Shown here one piece after another: positions 1 through 12,537 of a stretch of 12,537 nucleotides of DNA. A program made the translations under genes and the position numbers. This stretch comes from Candidatus Heimdallarchaeota archaeon. GTDB lineage: Archaea; Asgardarchaeota; Heimdallarchaeia; Heimdallarchaeales; Heimdallarchaeaceae. Position 1 is the stretch's first letter; each line of letters starts with the position of its first letter. The notes under the pieces were generated by a model. That model was not told the DNA's origin. It did no database searches and saw only the letters and a list, made by a program, of their open reading frames with translations. Location of the stretch: the NCBI GenBank assembly GCA_021399345.1, contig JAAFKI010000102.1:1-12537 (forward strand), read 5' to 3'.

Positions 1-48
1 CGCGGTATAAATCACAAATTTTAATTAGATTGTGTTATTGTGTTTTTC

Positions 49-77
49 AATCCTTATTTGAAAGCAAATATTGGATT
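49..77. promoter_or_regulatory. Imperfect inverted repeat upstream of the cluster (possible operator or hairpin)
   Basis: AATCC-T-TATTTG-[AAAG]-CAAATA-TT-GGATT: 55-60 pairs with 65-70 and 49-53 pairs with 73-77. Confidence 0.35.
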
Positions 78-120
78 AAGAATGAGATAAAGATTATTAC
101 AGCTATATGGGGTTATATGA

Positions 121-687
121 ATGGAAATTGAAAGTTTATTTCCTGAAATTAAAGAAATCAAGAATATTGATTTGTTGAATAAGGTAGCGAAATCTCTTGA
201 AAAAGCAATTCAACAAGGTGGATGGAGCACACAAGATCTTCACAAAATTCCTTTCACACTGTTAATTCCCGACTTAGTCAATGAAGATCTTACAGTGAAA
301 ATATCAATTATAGATCATATTCGAGCTGTAACACAGATGTGTTTAGCCACTTATGAAAGATATGAGATGCTTGGTCTTGGAGATAAGTTAAATAGAGATG
401 AGCTAATCGCAGGTGGATTACTACACGACGTAGGAAAATTCATCGAGTATGAAAAAGACGAAACTGGACATATAATTCAGACAGCGGAAGGAAAATACTT
501 ACGTCATCCAGCGATGGGTCTTGAATTAGTTTATGAATATTCTTTACCACTGATCGTTAGACAAGCCATTGTTTTTCACAGTAAAGAAGGAGATAAAATT
601 CCTAGATTAAAAGAAGTAGATATTATCCATCGCTGTGATTTTCTTTGCTTTGCTCCAATAAAACAAATATTCGAAGAAAATAAATGA
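121..687 (+). CDS. HD-domain (HDIG-type) metal-dependent phosphohydrolase, 188 aa
   Basis: Conserved HD-superfamily residues in order: DHIRAV, LIAGGLLHDVGK (HD at 424-429), LRHP, FHS, IHRCD. Size and motifs recall the MptB/MJ0837-like HD family; substrate not assignable. Confidence 0.88.
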   Translation: MEIESLFPEIKEIKNIDLLNKVAKSLEKAIQQGGWSTQDLHKIPFTLLIPDLVNEDLTVKISIIDHIRAVTQMCLATYERYEMLGLGDKLNRDELIAGGLLHDVGKFIEYEKDETGHIIQTAEGKYLRHPAMGLELVYEYSLPLIVRQAIVFHSKEGDKIPRLKEVDIIHRCDFLCFAPIKQIFEENK

Positions 688-705
688 GGAAAAGGTGTTT
701 TTGAA

Positions 706-1839
706 ATGAAGAAATACAAAATTGTAGTTTTACCAGGTGATGGTGTTGGTGTTGACGTAACAGAAGCAGCAATGAAAGTTCTGAAAGCTGTTGGATTTAG
801 TGATAAAGCTGAATATACATATGGAGATATTGGCTGGGAATTTTGGTGTAAGGAAGGAAATCCTTTACCAGATAGAACAATTGAGCTTCTCAAGAATTCA
901 GACTGTTCTTTGTTTTCAGCTATCACATCAAAACCCAAGGAAGAGGCTGAAAAGGAATTAGTTCCAGAATTACAAGGTAAGGGGTTAGTTTACTTTAGTC
1001 CTATTGTGAGATTACGACAACTGTTTGACCTTTATATCAACTTACGTCCTTGCAAAGCTTATCCAGGTAATCCTCTTAATTACAGGGATGATATTGATCT
1101 GGTAGTTTTTCGTGAAAATACTGAAGGACTTTATGTCGGAATCGAATGGCATCCTGTCCCAGAAGTAGTAATGAAAACAATTATTGAAAATCATCCCAAG
1201 GCAAAACGATTTGAAGAAGCGAATCTAGATGATGTAGCCATATCTACTAGAATATTCACTCGAGAAGGAGTTCAACGTATTCTCAAGGCTAGTATGGATT
1301 ATGCAAAGGAGTTTGACTACCCAACTGTAACTGTTGTAGAAAAACCAAATGTTATCAGAGAAACAAGTGGCTTGATGGTACGAGAAGCAAGAAAATTGAT
1401 ACAGGATTATGGCAACATAGAATTGTGGGAAACGAACATAGATGCAATGGCAATGTGGCTAGTAAAAAATCCTCAGAACTATGGGGTTTTAGTATCGTCT
1501 AACATGTTTGGAGATATTGTTTCAGACTTAGCAGCTCAGATAATAGGTGGGTTAGGTTTTGCTTGTTCAGGAAACATAGGAGAAAATTTTGCTGTTTTCG
1601 AGCCAACTCATGGATCAGCTCCCAAGTATGTGGGAATGAATAAAGTAAATCCAATTGCACAAATTCTTGCTGCAAAAATGATGTTAGATTGGTTGGATGA
1701 AAAAGACATGGCTAAAAAGATTGAAGATGCAGTAGCCGCTGTAATTGTTGAAGGAAAATATCGCACTTATGATATGGGCGGAAATACAACAACTTCTGAA
1801 ATGGCAGACGCCATTTGTGAGAAGATAAATGTCCTTTAA
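706..1839 (+). CDS. Isocitrate/homoisocitrate/isopropylmalate dehydrogenase family protein (homoisocitrate dehydrogenase-like, predicted NADP-type)
   Basis: LPGDGVG N-terminal motif; three substrate Args in RLRQLFDLYINLRP and FRENTEGLY (catalytic Tyr); catalytic Lys in EKPNV; metal-binding IDA..M and NMFGDIVSD; FEPTHGSAPKY. SD-like AGGTG at 693-697. Confidence 0.95.
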   Translation: MKKYKIVVLPGDGVGVDVTEAAMKVLKAVGFSDKAEYTYGDIGWEFWCKEGNPLPDRTIELLKNSDCSLFSAITSKPKEEAEKELVPELQGKGLVYFSPIVRLRQLFDLYINLRPCKAYPGNPLNYRDDIDLVVFRENTEGLYVGIEWHPVPEVVMKTIIENHPKAKRFEEANLDDVAISTRIFTREGVQRILKASMDYAKEFDYPTVTVVEKPNVIRETSGLMVREARKLIQDYGNIELWETNIDAMAMWLVKNPQNYGVLVSSNMFGDIVSDLAAQIIGGLGFACSGNIGENFAVFEPTHGSAPKYVGMNKVNPIAQILAAKMMLDWLDEKDMAKKIEDAVAAVIVEGKYRTYDMGGNTTTSEMADAICEKINVL

Positions 1840-1843
1840 CATA

Positions 1844-1863
1844 TTTTTTCCTTCATTTTTTTC
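1844..1863 (+). terminator. Candidate archaeal-type oligo-T terminator
   Basis: Two T runs (TTTTTT-CCTTCA-TTTTTTT) starting a few nt after the TAA at 1839, in the only large intergenic gap of the cluster. Confidence 0.45.
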
Positions 1864-1893
1864 TTACATCATTTTCTATGAAAATCAATGCCC

Positions 1894-1919
1894 CATAAAT
1901 ACATAACATAAATACATAA
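1894..1919. repeat. Perfect tandem direct repeat, 2 x 13 bp (CATAAATACATAA)
   Basis: 1894-1906 and 1907-1919 are identical. Confidence 0.9.
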
Positions 1920-1946
1920 GGATAATCTTATTACTTATTTATTAAT

Positions 1947-1952
1947 AGGTGA
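1947..1952 (+). promoter_or_regulatory. Shine-Dalgarno-like AGGTGA for the ATG at 1964
   Basis: Archaeal-type GGTGA 11 nt upstream of an in-frame ATG. Similar motifs precede 706 (AGGTG), 3229 (GAGGTG), 5609 (GAGGGA), 6922 (GGAGG) and 9084 (GGAG). Confidence 0.55.
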
Positions 1953-1963
1953 AACAGAGCGAA

Positions 1964-3232
1964 ATGACTAGCTTCACACTTATTGAAAAAATCATCAGAA
2001 ATCGTACAGATGTTTCAGATAGTGAGATCTATCCAAATAACATAGTATGGGTTAATCTTGATTTGGTTACAGCAAGAGATTATGCAGGACCTCAAGTTAT
2101 AGATCTATTTCAAAAAAACTATATTGGTTCTAAAACATTCAACAATGAAAAAGTTATCTTTACTCCAGATTGTTATCCTTATGGCAATGATCCAAAGCAT
2201 GCTAAAGATCAAGAAAAAATTCGCGTATTTGCCAAAGAACATGGAATCAAGGTAACTGATCTCGGGTCAGGTATAGGTTCTCATCTATTGTTTCGAAGAG
2301 GTTTTTCAAAACCAGGAGATGTAGTTATTGGAGCTGATAGCCATTATAATATTCTTGGAGCTTTAGGAATCTTAGGGCAAGGAGCAGGAGATGTCATGCT
2401 TGCTTTTGCCTTGAAAACAGGAAAATCATGGATAAAAATTCCTGAAACTGTAAAAATTATCTTAAAGGGAGATTATGAGTGGCCAACAACAGCAAAAGAT
2501 TTAGCTCTTTATGTTCTAAAAGAACTTCATGAATATGGAATTACAGGGAAAGCTGTCGAATTCTATGGTGCGATTATTGACAAGTTATCAATTGAAGAAA
2601 GAGTCACTTTATGTTCTCTAATTACAGAAGCTTCAGGCGTTATTGGATTTGTACCAGCTGATAAAATTACAGCTGATTATTACTCCAAGATTGGAATCGA
2701 GATAGAAATGTTATCCGCTGATGAAGATGCAAGATACATCTCAGAATTAGTCTTAGATATTCAAGATTTAGGCCAATACATCGCATGTCCTCCACATCCA
2801 CATAATGTCAAAAAAATTGAGGAAGTAATGGGTACTCCCATAAATTCTATTGTTATTGGTTCTTGTACAAATGGAAGTTCAGCAGATATTCATGATGCTG
2901 CAAAGATACTAAAGGGACACAAAATCAACCCAAATGTGAGATTTGGAATAGTTCCTGCAACTAGAGAGGATTTCGTTTCAATCAATCTAAATGGCGATAT
3001 GACAATAATTCTAGAATCTGGTGGAAACTTTTTTGGTGTAGGTTGTTCAACCTGCGCGAAGGGACAATATGGTTTAACCGGGGGTGAAACAGCTGTAACT
3101 TTAACAACAGGAAACAGAAACACTCAAGGCAAAATTGGTCCCGCAGATGTTTATTTAGCTAGTCCTGTTGTAGCTGCAGCTACAGCAATTGAAGGAAAAA
3201 TTGCTGCTCCTAAAGAGGTGGTTAAAAGATGA
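1964..3232 (+). CDS. Aconitase-family (LeuC/HacA-like) [4Fe-4S] hydro-lyase large subunit, divergent active site
   Basis: TLIEKII start, IGADSH, TGKSWIKIPET, TAKDLAL, three cluster cysteines (IGSCTNG, GCSTC), NRN, VYLASP..AAATAIEGKI. The ORF track starts at GTG 1949; ATG 1964 is preferred because that GTG lies within the SD motif. Confidence 0.92.
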   Translation: MTSFTLIEKIIRNRTDVSDSEIYPNNIVWVNLDLVTARDYAGPQVIDLFQKNYIGSKTFNNEKVIFTPDCYPYGNDPKHAKDQEKIRVFAKEHGIKVTDLGSGIGSHLLFRRGFSKPGDVVIGADSHYNILGALGILGQGAGDVMLAFALKTGKSWIKIPETVKIILKGDYEWPTTAKDLALYVLKELHEYGITGKAVEFYGAIIDKLSIEERVTLCSLITEASGVIGFVPADKITADYYSKIGIEIEMLSADEDARYISELVLDIQDLGQYIACPPHPHNVKKIEEVMGTPINSIVIGSCTNGSSADIHDAAKILKGHKINPNVRFGIVPATREDFVSINLNGDMTIILESGGNFFGVGCSTCAKGQYGLTGGETAVTLTTGNRNTQGKIGPADVYLASPVVAAATAIEGKIAAPKEVVKR

Positions 3233-3735
3233 GTAAAGAAACAATCAAAGCCAAAGCAAAGCTAGTCATAGTAGATGACATTGATACCGACCAAATATTT
3301 CATCAATCCTTATTAACAATTCATGACCCCAATGAAATAAAACCGCATATTTTCGGAAATCTTGAAGGGTATAAGAGTTTTGGAAAGGAAGATAATGTTG
3401 GGAAGATATTATTAGTTGGTAAAAATTTCGGTAAAGGATCCACAAGACAACAAGCTGTAACAGGATTTATAGCTCATGGAATCACAGCAATAGTTGGTGA
3501 ATCTTTTGGGCCAATTTATTATAGTAATTCTGTAAATTCAGGTTTACTCCTTGTTGAAGTACCAGGAATATCTGAATTCAAGGTTAAAGAAGATGATAAT
3601 CTAGAAATAGACATAACTCAATCATTAATTATCAACCAAAATAATGGGGAGACCATTAAATGTGTTAAAATACCTCAACCAGTATTAGATATAATAGAAG
3701 CTGGTGGTCTTTTAAAACTTGGAGAAATAATGTAA
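3229..3735 (+). CDS. Aconitase-family (LeuD/HacB-like) small (swivel) subunit, divergent
   Basis: DDIDTDQI, GKNFGKGSTRQQA (canonical GxNFGCGSSREHA), NSVNSGL, IIEAGGL. ATGA overlap with the upstream large subunit. Confidence 0.92.
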   Translation: MSKETIKAKAKLVIVDDIDTDQIFHQSLLTIHDPNEIKPHIFGNLEGYKSFGKEDNVGKILLVGKNFGKGSTRQQAVTGFIAHGITAIVGESFGPIYYSNSVNSGLLLVEVPGISEFKVKEDDNLEIDITQSLIINQNNGETIKCVKIPQPVLDIIEAGGLLKLGEIM

Positions 3736-3747
3736 AAAGTGGGATAT

Positions 3748-5598
3748 ATGAATGGCAAAACATTTTCAGAAAAACTTTTTTCGTTTAAATCAAATACAGG
3801 TGTGAAAGCTGGCGACATTGTTTATGCTGAACCTGATTTAATTCTGTCACACGATAATTCAGCATCAATAGAAAAGACTTTTCAAAAAATGGGTGGAACA
3901 AAAATCAAATTTCCTGAACGTCTTGTAATAGTCTTGGATCATGATTCACCACCAACGAGTGCCAAGATAGCAAATGATCATAAAAGTATAAGAGAATTAG
4001 TTAAAAAGCAGAATATAACTAATTTCTATGATGAGGGGAGGGGAATCTGCCATCAGTTGATGTCCAACCATGCTTCACCTAATATGCTCATTGTTGGATC
4101 AGATTCTCATACATGCACAAGTGGTGCATTTGCTACATTTGCAGCAGGAATTGATAGAACAGAAACAGCAGGATTGTGGTTAACAGGAAAGACTTGGTTT
4201 AGGGTTCCTGAAACAATTAAAGTTGTGCTAAATGGTAAATTACCTTTGGGTGTTTATGCAAAGGATATTGCTTTATGGTTAATGAATAAAATAGGCGCTG
4301 CTGGAGCGACCTATTATGCAATTGAGTTTCATGGAAAGGGTGTAGAAGCTTTATCTGTATCTGAAAGAATGACACTAGCAAACCTAGCTTCAGAGATGGG
4401 CGCTAAAACAGCTATTTTCCCACCAGACAAAGTTTTAATCAAATGGTCAAAAGAGAAACATGGTTCATCTGTAATTCCACAAGAAAAACTATTCTGGTCG
4501 GACAAAGATGCAATATTTAGCAGAGAAATCATTCTAGATTTAGCAAAATTGGAACCTTTAGTTGCGGTTCCACATCAAGTAGATAACACACAGTTTGCCA
4601 AAAAACTAGAAAAAACCCCCATTCATCAAGCTTTTCTGGGAACTTGTACAAATGCCAGATTAGATGATTTAGAGATTGCTGCGGAAATAATCAAAGATAA
4701 AAAAGTGAAAAATGGAGTGATGTTTCTTGTAGCTCCAGCTTCAAACAAAATCTATCTTGAAGCTTCAGAGAAGGGAGTTATTCAAACACTTGTTAAGGCA
4801 GGTGCAATAATACTTTCATGCAGTTGTGGTCCGTGTTTAGGTAAGGGACAAGGAATACCAGCTGACGACTGGAATGTTTTATCTACTGCAAACAGGAATT
4901 TTCTGGGAAGAATGGGAAATAAAAATGCACGTATATTTTTGGCATCTCCAGCAACTATAACAGCTTCTGCAATTGAAGGAAAAATTACAGACCCCAGAAA
5001 ATATCTATCATCTGGAGCCATAAGAGAGGAAACTGAAATAGAGCTACAATATAGAGATGTAGAAACTAAAACCCTTGAAATAGACTCTAAAGACGATAGA
5101 TACAACATGTATGTTTGGGATTATAGTGATGTTGACGATTTCAACACAGATCAGATGTTTGCGGGAGGTCTTACATACGATATTAAATCTTCAGAGGGAG
5201 ATAAAATAGTTCCACATTTATTCAAAGGCTTAGATGAAACTTTTGCAACTAGAATTAAGGAGGGGGATATTGTAATAGGTGGAGAAAATTTTGGATGTGG
5301 TTCATCAAGAGAACATCCAGCTGTAGGACTTGCAGCTGCGGGTGTTAAAGCTGTTATTGTAAAATCAGTATCTCGGATCTTTTATAGATCTGCAATTAAC
5401 CAGGGATTACCAATCATTGTACATCAAGAGTTCATTGAAAAATTTGATAAAAATCAGCAAACAACAATTGACTTAGAAAAAGGCCAAATTACAAATGGAA
5501 GTCAAGTTTATTCTTTCCCAAAACTACCAAGTGAATTACTAGAAATATTCACAGCTGGAGGACTTATCAAATATTATCAAAAACAATACTCAAACTAG
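3748..5598 (+). CDS. Fused large+small subunit aconitase-family hydro-lyase (homoaconitase-like)
   Basis: Large domain: SHDN, LDHD, GRGICHQ, GSDSHTCTSGA, FLGTCTN, SCGPCLG, STANRNFLGRMG, LASP. After a ~40 aa linker, small domain: NTDQMF, GENFGCGSSREHP, SRIFYRSAINQGLP, AGGLI. The ORF track starts at GTG 3739; ATG 3748 is the likelier start. Confidence 0.93.
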   Translation: MNGKTFSEKLFSFKSNTGVKAGDIVYAEPDLILSHDNSASIEKTFQKMGGTKIKFPERLVIVLDHDSPPTSAKIANDHKSIRELVKKQNITNFYDEGRGICHQLMSNHASPNMLIVGSDSHTCTSGAFATFAAGIDRTETAGLWLTGKTWFRVPETIKVVLNGKLPLGVYAKDIALWLMNKIGAAGATYYAIEFHGKGVEALSVSERMTLANLASEMGAKTAIFPPDKVLIKWSKEKHGSSVIPQEKLFWSDKDAIFSREIILDLAKLEPLVAVPHQVDNTQFAKKLEKTPIHQAFLGTCTNARLDDLEIAAEIIKDKKVKNGVMFLVAPASNKIYLEASEKGVIQTLVKAGAIILSCSCGPCLGKGQGIPADDWNVLSTANRNFLGRMGNKNARIFLASPATITASAIEGKITDPRKYLSSGAIREETEIELQYRDVETKTLEIDSKDDRYNMYVWDYSDVDDFNTDQMFAGGLTYDIKSSEGDKIVPHLFKGLDETFATRIKEGDIVIGGENFGCGSSREHPAVGLAAAGVKAVIVKSVSRIFYRSAINQGLPIIVHQEFIEKFDKNQQTTIDLEKGQITNGSQVYSFPKLPSELLEIFTAGGLIKYYQKQYSN

Positions 5599-5608
5599 AG
5601 GGATAAAA

Positions 5609-6925
5609 ATGAAATTATACGAATATGAGGCAAAGCAGATTTTTGAACAGTTTAACCTTAAAATTCCTAAACAAATAGCAATAATAGAAAGTGTTGAAGA
5701 TTTAGTGGACATATCTTTAGAATTTCCAATTATGATTAAGGCTATGGTTTTAATTGGGGGAAGGGGAAAAGCAGGAGGAATAAAGAAAGCTGAAACTATT
5801 GAGGAAACAGAGAACATCATAAAAGAAATGTTGGGTTTAACAATTCATGGTTATCCTATAAAGAAAATTTTACTTGAGGAAGCGGTTGATATTGCTAGTG
5901 AAATCTACCTGTCCATAACCACTGATCCTGCAACTTTTGATATAGTATTGGTTACATCTGCAAGTGGTGGTGTTGATATTGAAGAAGTTGCTCGAACTAA
6001 ACCAGATGAAATATGGAAGAAAGTACTAAGAAATAATGACAAATCTTTGAATGCTGAAATAGGAAAAAAAGCTGCTGATTTTCTAGTAGATAAAGATCAA
6101 AATCTCCAACTAGTGAGTGAAAAACTTCAACAAGCTATTGAATCTCTCTATTTGGCTTTTCAGGATGCTGAAGCAAAAATTTGTGAAATAAATCCCCTAA
6201 TTGTAACAAAGAAAGGAGACATAATTGTTGCTGATGCGAAATTTGTACTTGATGATAACAGTTTGTACAGACAAACACCTTTGCTGAAATCAATTGGGAT
6301 AGATCCCGGAAGTAAAAGGCACGATGTTTCAGAGCAAACAGCTTTTGAAGCAAAAGCATATCAAATCGGCTTTCCGTTCATTGATTTACTAGAGAATCCA
6401 GAGAATTTTGTGAAAGATGAAGAGAAACTGTATGTAGGTCTTGTTCCAGGAGGAGCAGGATATGGAATTTTTTCTGTAGATGAAATTGTTAATGTTGGAA
6501 ATCGATATTTCAATGGCAAGGTTGTTCCCATAAATTTCATGGATAGTGGTGGTGGTCCTTCAATAAGTAAGGTTGCAGATATGTTTCACCTTCTTATGAA
6601 TCATCCAGCAACAGATCTGATTATAACTAGTCGTTTTGGGGGGATATCTAGTTGTGATGTCTTCATTCAAGGATTGATTATGTCATTAAGAGATAGATTC
6701 ATTGCTAAGAAAATAATGATACCGGTTTATGGTCGAATGGTTGGAACTGATTTAGCTGCTGCAAAAGCCTTCCTTGAGAAAGCTAAGCTAGAAACACCAG
6801 AACCACTAATAGACTTACACATTGTTGTTGGAAATCAAAAGATAATGGTGGATGTCATTAAAGATGGAATTGAATATGGGTTTAAAGTGAAAAAACAAAG
6901 TGAGAATATGGAGGGTATTAAATGA
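5609..6925 (+). CDS. Succinyl-CoA synthetase beta-like / acyl-CoA synthetase (NDP-forming) ATP-grasp subunit; probable partner subunit of an ATP-citrate-lyase-like enzyme
   Basis: MKLYEYEAK, KAMVLIGGRGKAGGIK, EIYLSI, GGVDIEEVA, EINPL, ADAKFVLDDNSLYRQ; C-terminal ligase domain with GGAG, NFMDSGGG and FGGI. Confidence 0.9.
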   Translation: MKLYEYEAKQIFEQFNLKIPKQIAIIESVEDLVDISLEFPIMIKAMVLIGGRGKAGGIKKAETIEETENIIKEMLGLTIHGYPIKKILLEEAVDIASEIYLSITTDPATFDIVLVTSASGGVDIEEVARTKPDEIWKKVLRNNDKSLNAEIGKKAADFLVDKDQNLQLVSEKLQQAIESLYLAFQDAEAKICEINPLIVTKKGDIIVADAKFVLDDNSLYRQTPLLKSIGIDPGSKRHDVSEQTAFEAKAYQIGFPFIDLLENPENFVKDEEKLYVGLVPGGAGYGIFSVDEIVNVGNRYFNGKVVPINFMDSGGGPSISKVADMFHLLMNHPATDLIITSRFGGISSCDVFIQGLIMSLRDRFIAKKIMIPVYGRMVGTDLAAAKAFLEKAKLETPEPLIDLHIVVGNQKIMVDVIKDGIEYGFKVKKQSENMEGIK

Positions 6926-9063
6926 CAACTGATAAATTAGCCGTGGATCAAGGACTTCTCTATTATCTCATCAAACACATTCGTCCTGAACTCGCTCAGA
7001 AAATATCCGAAAAGAAAACAATTGAAACTATGATTGTTGGATTAGGAAGACAAGGAACTCGACACGCGCAACTTATGATGGAATATGGGACCAACGTTAC
7101 ATGTGGAGTAGCACCAGGCAAAGGTGGTACATATGTTCATGAAACTGTTCCTGTTTATGAATCTGCTGAGTCAGCAAAAAGGAAATACCCTGATATAGCT
7201 GTAGCAAGTATATGGAAACATTATTCTTCTGCTAAGGATGCTACAATTGAAGCTATTAGATCAGGAATTCCTATTGTTGTTCTAATTTCAGAATTTATTC
7301 CATTAAAGGATGTAAGAGACATTCTAGTTGAAGCTAGAAAACATAAAACAATCTTATTTGGTGGTAACACACCAGGAATAATATTTCCTCCAGAAGGAAT
7401 AAAAGTGGGTATGCTTCCAGATATTTTTCAGGCTCAAAAAACAGATAACAAAACTGGTCCCAAAGGAGTGACAATTTTATCGCGAAGTGGAGCTATTCTA
7501 TATCATTTATCTGATGCACTAGCTAGTGCAGGAATTGCTCAAAATGGAGTATTGGGTGTAGGGGGAGATGGAGCTATTGGTTCTCGTTTTATAGATCTTG
7601 TTTCAAGAATAATGCAATACGAGCACACAGATTTAGTTGTTATCGCTGGTGAAATTGGTGGAATGCAGGAAGAATTGCTAGCTCAAGACATGGAAGCAAA
7701 TCCAGAAAAATATCCAAAACCTCTAGTTGCATTAATATCAGGAGCCAATGCTCCGGAAGGAAAAACCATGGGGCATGCAGGAGCTGTAATTTCTCCTGGG
7801 CAAAGTTATGGTACCTATCAAACAAAGAAGGAATCCTTGGAAAAAGCAGGAGTAACTGTAGTAAACCATCAAAGAGATTTAATAGATGCTGTAAGGTCAA
7901 AATTAAATCGAATATATTTTGATATTGAGGAATATTACTCAAAAATGCGTAAAAAATGGGATGCTAGACCACCAGTGAAAACTTGGGGGACTTTAGTAAC
8001 TAATGTAATGCCAAACAATTTGATAATACGAGGATATCCTCTACAAGAAATTATAGCAGAAAAAGGATTTTTGGAAACGTCATATTTACTCCTTAAAGGA
8101 GAATTTCCTGAAGAAGCTCAACTTAAAGAGCTTGAAGATATTGCAAAAGAAGCAATAAAACAAGAATTCGCGGACCTTAAATCGATTACCATAAGTTCAG
8201 ATATTTCTAAAACTCTTGGAACATTGATGTTGGTCGATAATAAACTTGCAGATTTTGTAAGATTGAATTCTGAAGAAACAAAAATCGCTGCTTATACATT
8301 GGGAAGAGTATTGAAGTATTTTGCATATATTCTAGGCAATTTAGATCAACTAGAATCTTCTTCAGTTTCTGAAACATCATTCTCAGAAATGATATATATA
8401 GGATTGGTCAAAGAAAAAAACCCAGACACGCTTAAAGTTAAGCTGTTAGAAGCAATGATTACTGCTTGTGTAGATCACGGAATCACACCACCATCAGCTC
8501 AAGCAACAATAATTCTAGCGTCGACTAGAGCTAATTATGAAGTAGCTGTAGCTGGAGGTTTACAAGCAATTACTGATGTTCATGGTGGTGCAGGACAAAA
8601 GGCAGCTAAATTCTTCTTATCAGTTGTTGAAAAAGCTGAAAAAGAAAAATTGGAACTCGATGAATCCACCTTCAAATTGATACGTGAAACAATCAAAACC
8701 GGCAAAAGAATTGAAGGTTTAGGTCACCGTATTCATACACAAGATCCTAGAAGAGATGTTTTATGGAAACTTGCAGAAGATGCAGGATATGCAAAGAGTT
8801 GTGTTGATGTTTCAAAAATGATTAGTAGTGCTTTCCACCGCGTGCGAGGAATGAACCTCCCAATTAACGTAGATGGGGTTATTGCGGCGATTACAGCTGA
8901 CATGGGATTAGACCCAAAACTTGCAAAAGTTATTTTTGTATTTGGGAGAACAGCAGGACTGGCCGCACATTATTTTGAGGAAATTAATACTCAGCCTCAG
9001 ATGAGAAGGATTGCGTTTGATAAAGCTACTTACAAAGGACCATCAATTAGAGAAATTAAATAG
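6922..9063 (+). CDS. SucD-like CoA-binding/phospho-His subunit fused to a citryl-CoA lyase/citrate synthase-fold domain (ATP-citrate-lyase-like large subunit)
   Basis: N-half: GVAPGKGG, GGNTPG, SRSG, GVGGD, GEIGG, GKTMGHAGA (phospho-His at 7774-7776). C-half from ~7984: IRGYPL, DHGITPPS, HGGAG, GLGHRIH..DPR, PINVDG, GRTAGLAAHYFEE. ATGA overlap with the beta-like gene. Confidence 0.92.
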   Translation: MTTDKLAVDQGLLYYLIKHIRPELAQKISEKKTIETMIVGLGRQGTRHAQLMMEYGTNVTCGVAPGKGGTYVHETVPVYESAESAKRKYPDIAVASIWKHYSSAKDATIEAIRSGIPIVVLISEFIPLKDVRDILVEARKHKTILFGGNTPGIIFPPEGIKVGMLPDIFQAQKTDNKTGPKGVTILSRSGAILYHLSDALASAGIAQNGVLGVGGDGAIGSRFIDLVSRIMQYEHTDLVVIAGEIGGMQEELLAQDMEANPEKYPKPLVALISGANAPEGKTMGHAGAVISPGQSYGTYQTKKESLEKAGVTVVNHQRDLIDAVRSKLNRIYFDIEEYYSKMRKKWDARPPVKTWGTLVTNVMPNNLIIRGYPLQEIIAEKGFLETSYLLLKGEFPEEAQLKELEDIAKEAIKQEFADLKSITISSDISKTLGTLMLVDNKLADFVRLNSEETKIAAYTLGRVLKYFAYILGNLDQLESSSVSETSFSEMIYIGLVKEKNPDTLKVKLLEAMITACVDHGITPPSAQATIILASTRANYEVAVAGGLQAITDVHGGAGQKAAKFFLSVVEKAEKEKLELDESTFKLIRETIKTGKRIEGLGHRIHTQDPRRDVLWKLAEDAGYAKSCVDVSKMISSAFHRVRGMNLPINVDGVIAAITADMGLDPKLAKVIFVFGRTAGLAAHYFEEINTQPQMRRIAFDKATYKGPSIREIK

Positions 9064-9083
9064 GATGTTGATTGGAGAAAAGA

Positions 9084-9884
9084 ATGAAGAATCTAGCATT
9101 TGAGATAATTGGGGATATATTAATCATCAGGGATGATTCTGATGAAATTTCTTTGAAAAGCTTTGCAGAAGAAAAAATCCAAAAGCACTCTTTTATTAAA
9201 ACAGTATTACTTCAAACCTCCAAAATCCATGGACAAGAGCGAAAAAGAAAGATCAGGTATGTTATGGGAAAAAACAAATCAGAAACAATTCACAAAGAGC
9301 ATGGAAATTCATTCTTAGTAGATTTATCTGAAGTATTTTTCTCTCCTCGTTTGAGTTATGAAAGACAACGAATTGCTAATTTGATTGGAGAAAATGAGAT
9401 AATTCTAAATTTCTTTTCAGGAGTTGGTCCGTTTAGTATAGCTTTAGCATCGAAATGCAATTCATGTGTTGTTCATAGTATTGAAATAAACAAAACAGCA
9501 TATGATTGTCTTCTCAAAAATATTGAAACAAACAAATGTCAGGAAAAAGTTATCCCTTATTTCGGAGACGCTTTTGAGATTGTTCCAAAAATGTTTATCA
9601 ACAGTGTAAATAGGGTTTTGCTTCCTTTACCTCTAGATTCAGACAAAGCCCTCCCAATAGCTTATCAAACTTTGAAAGACGGAAGAGGAATTATTCATTG
9701 GCAAATTACAAAAAGAATAAGCTCAAAAGAGATAAGGGAAGAAATAATTATTGACAGAATTAATAGCATCCCCCATTCATACAATTTCTCCAAGAATTAT
9801 ACAATTACAGATATGAGATTAATTAGATGGTTAGGTCCAAAAATAGCACATATTGCAGTAGATTTAAGTTTCAAAGCTCCTTAA
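9084..9884 (+). CDS. Trm5/Taw2-family (Met-10-like) SAM-dependent tRNA G37/wyosine-pathway transferase, lacking the N-terminal D1 domain
   Basis: FEIIGDILII, TIHKEHG..F.VDL..VFFSPRLSYERQR, SAM motif FSGVGPFSI, IEIN..AY..L..N...NK, GDA, RVLLPLP. The ORF track starts at TTG 9072; ATG 9084 follows a GGAG. Confidence 0.88.
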   Translation: MKNLAFEIIGDILIIRDDSDEISLKSFAEEKIQKHSFIKTVLLQTSKIHGQERKRKIRYVMGKNKSETIHKEHGNSFLVDLSEVFFSPRLSYERQRIANLIGENEIILNFFSGVGPFSIALASKCNSCVVHSIEINKTAYDCLLKNIETNKCQEKVIPYFGDAFEIVPKMFINSVNRVLLPLPLDSDKALPIAYQTLKDGRGIIHWQITKRISSKEIREEIIIDRINSIPHSYNFSKNYTITDMRLIRWLGPKIAHIAVDLSFKAP

Positions 9885-10305
9885 TAGAACTAACATAATC
9901 TGCGTATTCCTCAAGTTCTTTGAAATAATCTTCTGATGTAAAGATATATTCATTTGAGTTATTAATATCTCGAATAATTTGTAAGAGATCCTGAAGAGAT
10001 AAAATTCCATTAGTAATTAATAAATCGAAATTTGCAATTAAACAGACAGCATTTTTCAAAACACTTAATGTATCAAGTAGAGTGTTCCGAACATTATTCA
10101 CTGCCTCATTAGATCCAATTGTTACATAGGGAATAGAGTCTTCTAGCTCTAAATCCGGAATCCAAGTAAAAGAATCATCAATAATGATTACCAATACAGG
10201 TTTTGAGTGCCCTTTTGCTCTTAAAATTGATCCTAATCCAGTATGAAAAGCTCCTTTTCTCACACCAAAATAGTAATGGGTTAAGTAAAGGTCAGTCATA
10301 AACAT
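9871..10305 (-). CDS. CobO/BtuR (cob(I)alamin adenosyltransferase)-fold protein, degenerate
   Basis: HYYFGVRKG...GLGSILRAKGHSKPVLVI aligns by eye with the family's hYTGxGKGKTTAAhGxAhRAxGHGxKV. The C-terminal GILSLQDLLQII...EYIFTS....ELEEYADYVS matches GLI..EEVL.....ELVLTGR.....L.E.AD.VT. Confidence 0.6.
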   Translation of the reverse strand: MFMTDLYLTHYYFGVRKGAFHTGLGSILRAKGHSKPVLVIIIDDSFTWIPDLELEDSIPYVTIGSNEAVNNVRNTLLDTLSVLKNAVCLIANFDLLITNGILSLQDLLQIIRDINNSNEYIFTSEDYFKELEEYADYVSSIKEL

Positions 10306-10312
10306 CTACTTA

Positions 10313-11722
10313 CTAATTAGATTGACTTTGTAATTTTGCCAAGTATCGCTTGTATCCATCTAGAGTGTCTTCAACTCTCAACATATGCCTTTCTGCTTTA
10401 ATTCGTAGTTCTTGCCATTCCTCTTCATCGATTTTCTCCGAATTTAGAGCATGTTCTAATTGTTGGATTCTCTCTATGGCCTTTTGTCTTCGGGTTCCGA
10501 GGTGTTTGATAACATTCTCAATATCTTCGAATTGAATAGGGGTTTTATCTGTTTCTCCAGCTTCTGCCTCAATAATTTTAGTTAATGCAGATTTCTCTTC
10601 TTCCGGTTCTAAATCTTTTTCCTTGGATACATGTGCTATCGTTTCCTTTATTGAGGATACAAAGTCAGCAGCTGTTTCTCTCTGCTCGGGGGACGATAAA
10701 ACTTGATTTAATCTAGATATAGAAGAACGAAACTCATGGACTTCAGCAATTTCTTTCTCACTTAATCCTTCTTCACTTATCACACTTTCTTCAATTGAAG
10801 GGGTGCTTGGAAGCGTAATTTCTCCTTCTTCTTCACTAATGGATATTAGTTTTTCTGTTAATGGAGAAATAACTGTATCATCTCCCGGATCCAAGGCAGA
10901 TAACAAACCTGCTAACTCCTTCAAAGCTTCTTGCTCTGTTTCAATATTTTGCATAAAGGGTTCTTGCTCAAATTCATATTGGGAAGCAAGTTCAATGCCT
11001 TCAATCAGGTCTTTAGCATCATCCATCAAATCCTTTTCAGGTTGCTCAGTTGTTTCTGAAATATCATCCAAAGGAGCAGAATCCACCGGTACAGAATCCA
11101 ATTCAACTTCTTCAATAATTTCTTGTTCTTTAATTTCCTCAACTTCAGGCTTTTCTGTTTCAGCTTCAATCAGTTCTTCAAAAACTTGAACATCAGAATC
11201 GTCTTGTTTTTTTTCCTCGTTTTGCTTTATAGGAATCTGTTTTGATGGTTCAATTTCTGTAATTTGAATATTACTTCTTTGGAGCTGTAACAAGGCTGTT
11301 GTTTGTTGTTTCAGCTTTTTTGTTTCTTCACGAATAGAATTAATGTTAAGCTCCAACGTTTCAAGTTTTGCATTAATGAACTGTAATGTATCATTTTCAG
11401 TACCACTGAATCTATGATATTCTATTTGTAACATATTTGCATATGTAATTACATTGTAAACTGTATCAATCATTTCAGGTAATTCTCTAAACCAAGGTCC
11501 TGCACTGTCGAATTTCAGAAGAATATCCTTAGCAGTCGAAAAATGCTTTTCGTACTCTTTTTGTTGCTCTGGTGGTAAACAAGTTTTAACATATGAGGAA
11601 AGAGTAGCCAGATTTGTTATAAGATGTGTTTTAACATCCTCCTCTTCTTCTGGATTGAATTTACCCTTTAGAACTCCCCAAAACATCGTTTTAATTTCTT
11701 CAATTGCTTTCTCAAGGCTCAT
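10313..11722 (-). CDS. Hypothetical acidic, coiled-coil / partly disordered protein, 469 aa
   Basis: Long ORF packed 2 nt and 7 nt from its neighbours; helical N-terminus, heptad segment, long E/D/P/S-rich middle and helical C-terminus. No family recognised. Confidence 0.85.
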   Translation of the reverse strand: MSLEKAIEEIKTMFWGVLKGKFNPEEEEDVKTHLITNLATLSSYVKTCLPPEQQKEYEKHFSTAKDILLKFDSAGPWFRELPEMIDTVYNVITYANMLQIEYHRFSGTENDTLQFINAKLETLELNINSIREETKKLKQQTTALLQLQRSNIQITEIEPSKQIPIKQNEEKKQDDSDVQVFEELIEAETEKPEVEEIKEQEIIEEVELDSVPVDSAPLDDISETTEQPEKDLMDDAKDLIEGIELASQYEFEQEPFMQNIETEQEALKELAGLLSALDPGDDTVISPLTEKLISISEEEGEITLPSTPSIEESVISEEGLSEKEIAEVHEFRSSISRLNQVLSSPEQRETAADFVSSIKETIAHVSKEKDLEPEEEKSALTKIIEAEAGETDKTPIQFEDIENVIKHLGTRRQKAIERIQQLEHALNSEKIDEEEWQELRIKAERHMLRVEDTLDGYKRYLAKLQSQSN

Positions 11723-11724
11723 TT

Positions 11725-12537
11725 TTAAAACCCTAAATTAATTGTTCTTCGTTTAGTGAAATCATGAGGTAATGAAGGCTCTAAATAAATTTTATCGATT
11801 TTTAAATCATCCTTCAGCTGAATAGTAACATCAAGTTTTTCTTTCGAATCAATGTTCCAGAAATATAGAGATGGTTTTATTCCTGATCGAGAATACTCAC
11901 TTAGTATAGAAAATGAACTTACCAGATGTTGATACTCAGGACTTTTTTTAGCAGGAAAAGATTCACTCCATGGATTCACATGAATGATTATATTGTTTGT
12001 AATCTTTGCTAATTCTGTGATATTTTGACCAAAGAACTCATTAGCTCCAGTAATAAAACCAGTTTCTTTATCAGCTTTTAATACAAAAGAAATATCGATA
12101 TTCTTTAGGTTTTTCACAGTATCTGTAATTTCTCTTAATGTTTGATTAATGTAAGTAGACCTTTCATCATTCCAATTTTCCATTAGGTCCCGGGATTCAA
12201 GATATTCAAAACTGAAATCTCTTTCAATATTCCACTTGCTCGCAAATAATCTCCTACATCTATCACAGAAACAAGTTCTTTTGCTTGCCAACATCAAATC
12301 GTCTAATACCAAATTTTCTATTGGGTAATGAGCTATTTCTGATGCTATAGCTGCTGAATATTTTACCAAATTTTCTTGGCTTGGACAAGAATATGAAGCA
12401 ATAGTAGCGCCATCGCTACTACTTAGTTGAAAATCAGTGTTTTGGGAAAGAAAACTATCCCCATGAACATAAGTAACCGCATCCACTTTTATTCCCATAT
12501 TGTCTGCAATTGTACAAAATGAATGAAAGAAGACACC
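11725..12537 (-). CDS. 5'-truncated putative glycoside-hydrolase-like TIM-barrel protein (GHL10/GHL6-like) with CxCxxC motif
   Basis: The frame is open from the window edge (GVFFHSFCTIADN-MGIKVDA...), so ATG 12498 is probably internal. The pattern GIKVDA...D...G....CPS.......EIAHYPIENLVLDD...CFCDRC...F resembles GHL-type barrels. Confidence 0.55.
   Translation of the reverse strand, partial: GVFFHSFCTIADNMGIKVDAVTYVHGDSFLSQNTDFQLSSSDGATIASYSCPSQENLVKYSAAIASEIAHYPIENLVLDDLMLASKRTCFCDRCRRLFASKWNIERDFSFEYLESRDLMENWNDERSTYINQTLREITDTVKNLKNIDISFVLKADKETGFITGANEFFGQNITELAKITNNIIIHVNPWSESFPAKKSPEYQHLVSSFSILSEYSRSGIKPSLYFWNIDSKEKLDVTIQLKDDLKIDKIYLEPSLPHDFTKRRTINLGF

Follow-up and report, generated by a model that had tools for sequence, protein, structure and literature searches.

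A 12,537-nucleotide stretch of DNA (the window; contig JAAFKI010000102.1) from a 3.27 Mb, 88.6% complete genome of a Candidatus Heimdallarchaeota archaeon carries an operon that, in the reading we favor with moderate confidence, would encode a self-contained, non-canonical citrate branch within the tricarboxylic acid (TCA) cycle: acetyl-CoA + oxaloacetate ↔ citrate ↔ isocitrate ↔ 2-oxoglutarate. Seven co-oriented open reading frames (ORFs) on the plus strand fill positions 121-9063 and encode, in order, an HD-domain protein, a β-decarboxylating dehydrogenase, an atypical LeuC-like Fe-S hydro-lyase large subunit (aLeuC) with its partner small subunit (aLeuD), a fused LeuC-LeuD-type hydro-lyase, and the two subunits of a ligase-lyase that resembles ATP-citrate lyase (ACL). 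A previous sequence-only reading had given this gene content and these coordinates, with which ORF and Pfam/NCBIfam analysis agrees, and had described the genes as mostly overlapping or a few nucleotides apart; the junctions are, in order, 18, 109, −4, 3, 10, and −4 nt, tight except for one 109-nt spacer. Its principal proposal was a homocitrate/2-oxoadipate pathway, for which we find weak support, and its alternative was a citrate branch built from LeuC/D-type enzymes, which the evidence favors.

In the scheme that we propose from the sequences, the ligase-lyase (5609-9063) would catalyze acetyl-CoA + oxaloacetate + ADP + Pi ↔ citrate + CoA + ATP via enzyme-bound citryl-CoA, that is, ACL chemistry assembled independently from a succinyl-CoA synthetase (SCS)-like pair and a citryl-CoA lyase (CCL)-like domain. 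The two Fe-S hydro-lyases would take citrate through cis-aconitate to isocitrate, with the citrate half probably handled by the aLeuC/aLeuD pair, which lacks an active-site His, and the isocitrate half by the fused enzyme, which is canonical. The NADP-type dehydrogenase would then interconvert isocitrate and 2-oxoglutarate + CO2, and two glutamate dehydrogenases would provide the link to glutamate. The thioester energy would be kept as ATP, or as acetyl-CoA in a variant with CitF described below, and because it would be kept as ATP the module could take the place of citrate synthase (CS) in an anaerobe short of energy, or operate in the opposite direction. Substrates, division of labor, and direction of flux are all predicted here. 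There is reportedly a physiological precedent for ACL chemistry running toward citrate with substrate-level phosphorylation, since Moller et al. are said to have described in 1987 how Desulfobacter postgatei uses an ATP-citrate lyase for citrate synthesis with a yield of ATP.

One observation that fits citrate is that genomes whose sister families hold the canonical enzymes have no CS-, aconitase-, or isocitrate dehydrogenase (IDH)-type set other than the module. The operon contains the only CS-family, aconitase-family, and Iso_dh-family genes of the whole genome; sister families f2 and f4 have a canonical CS and an AcnA of ~900 aa, whereas the family of the window genome, f1, has only the operon's module. 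Among 151 Asgard genomes, the 713-aa fusion subunit of the ligase-lyase occurs in 15 and canonical CS in 24, with an overlap of 0, and the same split is seen within genera g9 and g25. These genomes are related, and the exclusion is suggestive rather than a statistical proof; it is this exclusion that points to a flux toward citrate. The genome also has the other parts of a TCA set, which argues for citrate as well: six 2-oxoacid:ferredoxin oxidoreductase alpha genes, the two glutamate dehydrogenases, an SdhA/FrdA-type flavoprotein, a class I fumarase, an Ldh_2-type dehydrogenase, and SCS fragments. Contigs C187 and C70 hold a separate SucC/SucD pair.

Citrate is likewise favored by the lack of the partner genes that other pathways would need. 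No HMGL-like (LeuA/homocitrate synthase, DRE-TIM) gene was found in the window, as the sequence-only reading had remarked, in the genome, or in any of the 14 f1 genomes including this one. In the genome, which is 88.6% complete, LysW, ketol-acid reductoisomerase (KARI), PrpD, and CitF were not found, and the best LysX match reached 31 bits against a cut-off of 276. The genome-wide check that had been proposed earlier thus finds no homocitrate synthase, LysW, or LysX, and CS-, aconitase-, and Iso_dh-family genes in the operon only. Leucine and isoleucine biosynthesis were rejected for this genome, neither a LeuA/CimA-type gene nor KARI having been found. The methylcitrate cycle was rejected too: an IDH-type enzyme cannot oxidize 2-methylisocitrate, a tertiary alcohol, and the genome has no PrpD or CitF.

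The first subunit of the ligase-lyase is a 438-aa SucC-like ATP-grasp β-subunit (5609-6925, plus strand; ATP-grasp_2, 148 bits, and Ligase_CoA). Its nearest solved structure is the SCS β-subunit 3ufx (3e-50), with citryl-CoA synthetase (Ccs) at 5e-21 and no ACL chain at 1e-10. A Pfam search gave no Citrate_bind (PF16114) match, and the ACL-type Citrate_synth_N (PF24948) scored 49 bits against a cut-off of 83, compared with 229 and 254 bits for a canonical Asgard AclB on the ACL-type domains. The subunit is 29.5% identical to Escherichia coli SucC; with the canonical AclB of G136, a class-level Asgard relative, it shares 26.7% identity across 240 aa. The second subunit (6922-9063, plus strand; CoA_binding, Ligase_CoA, Citrate_synt), of 713 aa, joins a SucD-like α-subunit to a citrate synthase-fold domain. 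The N-terminal half is nearest to the SCS α-subunit 2yv2 (4e-52; ACL 7e-30; Ccs 2e-27) and keeps the phosphohistidine loop GHAGA (H285). The C-terminal domain of ~355 aa is full-size, not truncated, spanning positions 13-353 of the 357 in Citrate_synt; its nearest structure is the Hydrogenobacter thermophilus CCL (6hxp, 3e-35), relative to which it has ~100 extra CS-like residues, and its lyase motifs are kept (VDH519, H554GGA, GH602RIH..DPR610, NVD651, and GR676TAG). Retention of the CCL/CS His, His, Asp, and Arg motifs together with GHAGA would be expected of an enzyme acting on citrate. The SCS equivalog models score below their cut-offs (SucC 243 against 370; SucD 215 against 336).

In G136 a canonical AclB/AclA pair coexists with the SCS-derived type, the two being ~27% identical. 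Because the subunits are nearest to SCS and share only that identity with a coexisting canonical ACL, the operon enzyme is taken as an independent SCS::CCL fusion in the ACL layout and not a type I ACL, with an origin from succinyl-CoA synthetase separate from that of known ACL. Type I ACL (AclB/AclA of Chlorobium and Methanothrix, human ACLY; 6hxj, 6hxi, 6hxh) has the same two-gene layout, an ATP-grasp subunit followed by one that joins the CoA-binding/phosphohistidine part to a CS-homology domain with catalytic His/His/Asp, and its net reaction is expected to be the same. In contrast to it, the operon enzyme lacks the ACL citrate-binding domain, falls below the ACL ATP-grasp cut-off, and is a separate fusion. 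The H. thermophilus CcsAB and Ccl enzymes (6hxq, 6hxp) likewise combine an SCS-like ligase with a citrate synthase-fold lyase in two-step chemistry via citryl-CoA. However, Ccl is a stand-alone protein of ~260 aa, whereas the operon lyase is fused to the α-subunit and retains the ~100 CS residues that Ccl has lost, and both ligase subunits are closer to SCS than to Ccs (4e-52 and 3e-50 versus 2e-27 and 5e-21). In SucCD the α-subunit is normally a free protein of ~290 aa, unlike the fusion seen here. Two other groups of related proteins were encountered: a 325-380-aa citrate synthase-family class in Asgard family f10 (e.g., G116:C12:34829-35818 and G103:C13:6442-7422; Pfam 1e-57 to 1e-68), and stand-alone CCL-like proteins of 256-282 aa in several Asgard families.

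Two hydro-lyases lie between the dehydrogenase and the ligase-lyase genes. aLeuC (1949-3232, plus strand; 427 aa, Aconitase family) keeps the cluster cysteines C306, C366, and C369, D130-S131-H132, and Asn-Arg. The Asp-His pair is replaced by D74-C75, the substrate-binding Arg (Arg452) by K395, and R43 occupies the position of a His in LeuC and of a Gln (Gln72) in aconitase. In 115 members of the aLeuC clade from Asgard archaea, Thermoplasmatota, and several bacterial phyla, the Lys is present and the active-site His absent without exception, the Arg is found in all except one (114/115), and the residue after the Asp is C, L, T, or V. aLeuD (3229-3735, plus strand; 168 aa, Aconitase_C/LEUD_arch) has clade-specific motifs (DTDQIFH with H25, loop LLTI, and GSTRQQ), with no Arg in the specificity loop and GS(T)R retained. 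The fused enzyme (3739-5598, plus strand; 619 aa, Aconitase and Aconitase_C, PRK00402 493 bits) has the full canonical set: H38, D67-H68, H105, D122-S123-H124, C303, C363, C366, N385-R386, R391, and GSSRE. Its small-domain loop, GLTYDIK, has the length of true aconitases, with K483 one position ahead of the aconitase Arg, and its orthologs are two separate genes in G136 and at locus L042. The small-subunit loops are clade-specific yet variable among orthologs (GLTYDIK, GKYTYE, GRYLQL); this variation leaves the substrate undecided, and the loops were dropped as an indicator of it.

To our knowledge, no aconitase reaction split between two enzymes has been described for citrate itself. Division of dehydration and rehydration between enzymes has known parallels: homocitrate isomerization in the α-aminoadipate pathway requires both aconitase and homoaconitase, and the methylcitrate cycle requires PrpD plus aconitase (PMC3556520). 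The operon pair differs from these in that both enzymes are of the LeuCD type, the presumed substrate is citrate, and the presumed dehydratase belongs to the His-less clade. A PrpD gene adjoins the ACL-like pair in a Bipolaricaulia metagenome-assembled genome (MAG).

The makeup of the two hydro-lyases raises the alternative of a citrate branch in which the fused enzyme is the sole aconitase, while aLeuC/aLeuD and the HD protein form a separate unit, co-located for regulation, which could carry out one-way dehydration of a related acid or serve in salvage or repair. We consider this quite unlikely. It would account for the full catalytic set of the fused enzyme beside an aLeuC without the His and Arg used by aconitases, for the HD gene directly adjoining aLeuC/aLeuD in three unrelated contexts, and for one bacterial MAG in which aLeuC/aLeuD have no citrate genes nearby. 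However, in every f1 genome with the module the aLeuC/aLeuD genes are placed after the dehydrogenase and before the fused hydro-lyase, with junctions that overlap or span 3 nt. Their co-occurrence with CCL-type lyases extends across phyla, and the HD gene keeps to the ligase or the dehydrogenase in contexts where it has no aLeuCD beside it.

The dehydrogenase (706-1839, plus strand; 377 aa, Iso_dh 301 bits) keeps all catalytic Arg, Tyr, Lys, and Asp residues. Its cofactor signature, APKY..KVNP (K307 and Y308, equivalent to the NADP-related Lys344/Tyr345 of Icd, and V314), is that of E. coli Icd and unlike the APDI of LeuB, which bears out the earlier description of an NADP-type enzyme, and an Icd-type insert follows GIEW at 145-172. 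Its S98-P-I100 corresponds to Icd S113-L-N115, of which Ser113 and Asn115 serve the γ-carboxylate, and the Ser113 equivalent is thus kept; this Ser, the NADP-type K-Y, and the insert argue for isocitrate as the likely substrate. The nearest solved structure is Thermus thermophilus homoisocitrate dehydrogenase (HICDH; 3asj, 4e-65), and the top NCBIfam model is the homoisocitrate dehydrogenase AksF2 (318 against a cut-off of 540; prok_nadp_idh, 185 against 567). The sequence-only reading had called the enzyme HICDH-like. That likeness holds for the closest structure and for the Ile that both enzymes have at the Icd Asn115 position, but compared with Thermus HICDH (3asj, 1x0l) the operon enzyme has Lys-Tyr in place of Asp-Ile, the Icd-like insert, and the Ser113 equivalent, and the HICDH Arg85 equivalent is not conserved (Val at the position, followed by R, K, A, or G). 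The companion description of the fused hydro-lyase as homoaconitase-like fared similarly: it is close to Methanocaldococcus jannaschii HacA (4kp2) but about equally close to LeuC (4kp1), misses the HacA cut-off, and lacks the YLRT loop.

These affinities bear on an alternative that we regard as unlikely, namely that the same reaction sequence acts on another 2-hydroxy-tricarboxylate, either homocitrate or another substituted citrate or malate; if so, the operon would encode a new pathway. Besides the HICDH structure, the AksF2 match, and the shared Ile, it is favored by the LeuC/HacA type of the hydro-lyases, by the known need of homocitrate for two hydro-lyases (PMC3556520), and by the canonical citrate cluster that G136 has besides the module. 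For homocitrate the sequence would be acetyl-CoA + 2-oxoglutarate ↔ homocitrate ↔ homoaconitate ↔ homoisocitrate ↔ 2-oxoadipate. From a longer 2-oxoacid, a CS-fold enzyme of Si-face specificity would produce the "wrong" enantiomer, which would explain a remodeled dehydratase, aLeuCD, ahead of an ordinary homoaconitase-like hydratase. We nevertheless rate homocitrate as improbable, at about half the likelihood of all non-citrate substrates taken together. Without LysW or LysX there is no known sink or source for 2-oxoadipate. The YLRT loop of methanogen homoaconitase (2pkp), whose Arg serves the distal carboxylate, is absent from both small subunits or domains (LLTI and GLTYDIK), and the HacA (417 and 279 against 550), HacB (114-117 and 92-99 against 230), and AksF cut-offs are missed by wide margins. 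The equivalent of Arg85, the HICDH residue for the distal carboxylate, and the HICDH Asp-Ile are missing from the dehydrogenase, orthologous modules have CitF and CCL-type partners, and the module and canonical CS exclude each other. Every characterized citrate synthase-fold enzyme that we know of uses oxaloacetate.

The citrate reading also draws on the recurrence of the module elsewhere, a point on which the sequence-only reading had advised a check. The seven-gene order was found in 10 relatives, which belong to three genera of the family and whose proteins are 64-98% identical to those of the operon, and parts of the module recur jointly in other Asgard families, in a Bipolaricaulia bacterium, and in other uncultured anaerobes. 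The arrangements include HD-aLeuC-aLeuD ... dehydrogenase-AclB-AclA in another Asgard family, dehydrogenase-HD-AclB-AclA-PrpD in the Bipolaricaulia MAG, and HD-AclB-AclA on a Thermoplasmatota contig. On an archaeal contig with the order aLeuC-aLeuD-HD-CitF-CCL-LeuC-LeuD-dehydrogenase (CitF 552 bits; IDH 66% identity), the ligase is replaced by a full-length CitF of the citrate lyase alpha-chain family, and CitF adjoins AclB-AclA in two further Asgard genomes, named in their source as one Heimdallarchaeota and one Promethearchaeota. A bacterial MAG has Ldh_2-HD-SucC-like-SucD-like-CCL-HD-aLeuC-aLeuD, in which the ligase is of the split citryl-CoA synthetase type. The recurrence of the order and of its sub-sets across lineages therefore indicates a conserved module, more than chance, which consists of a citryl-CoA lyase-type domain with an exchangeable activating enzyme, the HD protein, two hydro-lyases, and the dehydrogenase. 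The citrate-specific company of CitF and CCL in orthologous modules argues for citrate.

Variations on the arrangement were also seen. In a bacterial version of it (L041) the SucC-like subunit (3441-5522) has 517 aa and a weak ACL citrate-binding match, a DUF333 protein lies between the two ligase genes, and the two HD genes differ. At L039 (2451-3941) and L038 (1497-2987), from G058 and G041, an opposite-strand 496-aa PLP-dependent (PALP) protein splits aLeuD from the dehydrogenase.

The HD protein (121-687, plus strand; 188 aa, Pfam HD, NCBIfam HDIG) is assigned to the HD-domain metal-dependent phosphohydrolase superfamily, and its gene accompanies module genes throughout the Asgard, Bipolaricaulia, Thermoplasmatota, and bacterial and archaeal variant contexts. 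H66, H102-D103, H129, H153, H170, and D173 are invariant in nine orthologs from four lineages. The predicted model (pLDDT 93) has the HD fold, and its matches in the PDB are generic only: YhaM (9h3f), PF0395/1xx7, HDDC2, and PgpH, the best of them, YhaM, with a TM score of 0.64 at 21% identity. No function for the protein follows from this structure search.

Several results weigh against the citrate branch. None of the seven proteins reaches an NCBIfam equivalog cut-off, the fused hydro-lyase alone passing broad subfamily models, so that every substrate has to be inferred. The acid-binding region of the β-subunit resembles SCS, not ACL. Asn is found at the Icd Asn115 position (SxN) in all isocitrate dehydrogenases compared, whereas the operon enzyme has Ile100 there and every module dehydrogenase ortholog has SPIV; within G136 the IDH of the canonical cluster is SxN and that of the module SPI. 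A basic residue that could serve the distal carboxylate is not clearly conserved in either small subunit. A single aconitase suffices for citrate in all characterized systems known to us, and the citrate reading consequently leaves the second hydro-lyase and the HD protein unexplained. G136 carries canonical AclB, AclA, an SxN-type IDH, and a PRK07229-type aconitase (975 bits) on one contig (L043, G136:C1:86000-98000) and the non-canonical module on others; two parallel sets in one genome argue against simple redundancy. Finally, the whole module is absent from two complete single-contig genomes of the same family, G026 and G074, and is thus dispensable.

In those two genomes, which represent one genus, part of the central metabolism around the module seems to be missing: genes of the CS, aconitase, Iso_dh, HMGL, and SdhA families were found in neither, although fumarase is present. 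On whether loss of the module goes together with loss of the remaining TCA cycle in family f1, the picture is mixed: these two genomes lack SdhA/FrdA and keep fumarase, and G003 has the module and no SdhA. This comparison was not used as evidence.

"ACL in Asgard archaea" has been reported at annotation level, not resolved to the SCS-derived type (bioRxiv 10.1101/2022.10.25.513756; PMC11976288). We found no paper in which the SCS-derived ACL-like type, the hydro-lyase clade without the His, or the accompanying HD protein is set apart. A wider possibility, which we offer tentatively, is that these genes belong to an undescribed "thrifty" citrate module of energy-limited anaerobes, including archaeal relatives of eukaryotes, with three features: a thioester-conserving citrate synthase, a two-enzyme aconitase, and a dedicated HD accessory protein. 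The citryl-CoA thioester would be conserved as ATP by the independently evolved SCS::CCL enzyme or as acetyl-CoA by CitF plus CCL, and the dehydratase on the citrate side would be a new, His-less class of Fe-S hydro-lyase. If the citrate reading holds, metabolic reconstructions of the Heimdall group and other Asgard archaea would need correcting where standard markers have led ACL to be scored as a reductive TCA cycle, or a missing citrate synthase as an incomplete one. The operon enzyme would fall outside type I ACL, to which the eukaryotic enzyme is related, and might run toward citrate with a gain of ATP. It would represent a third, independent origin of ACL-type chemistry, bearing on the evolution of citrate synthase, CCL, and ACL, and the His-less LeuC-like clade with its ever-present HD protein would provide concrete, widespread candidate enzymes.

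The 109-nt spacer (1840-1948) has T-runs past the dehydrogenase stop codon, followed by AT-rich, TATA-like sequence, and is a possible internal terminator/promoter; the HD-dehydrogenase pair may therefore form its own transcription unit. A gap of 58-110 nt occupies this position in all relatives, the remaining junctions being tight, and HD-dehydrogenase is a separate pair in G062 and G136. The neighbors of the pair in G062, G136, G119, and G021 were uninformative. In RNA libraries from two studies, short Logan contigs correspond to parts of each of the seven genes, a weak hint of expression, as such contigs give no strand, level, or operon structure and may reflect DNA carry-over. One RNA-library contig from run X19 (1689 nt, depth ~177) spans window positions 1-920, from the region upstream through the HD gene into the first part of the dehydrogenase gene, and extends ~770 nt past the window start, which is a contig end.

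Downstream, 8 nt after the last gene of the operon, is a gene that starts with TTG and encodes a tRNA methyltransferase of the Taw/Trm5 type, from the wyosine pathway (9072-9884, plus strand). It scores under all NCBIfam equivalog cut-offs, has two paralogs, on C41 and C89, and is syntenic within the genus only, the synteny being absent from G003 and G086. A short CobA-like fragment (9871-10305) adjoins a pair of minus-strand genes for proteins of 469 aa (10313-11722) and 257 aa (11725-12498), which match no Pfam family even at E = 0.01 and are found at the same position, with 60-96% identity, in most of the genus relatives checked.

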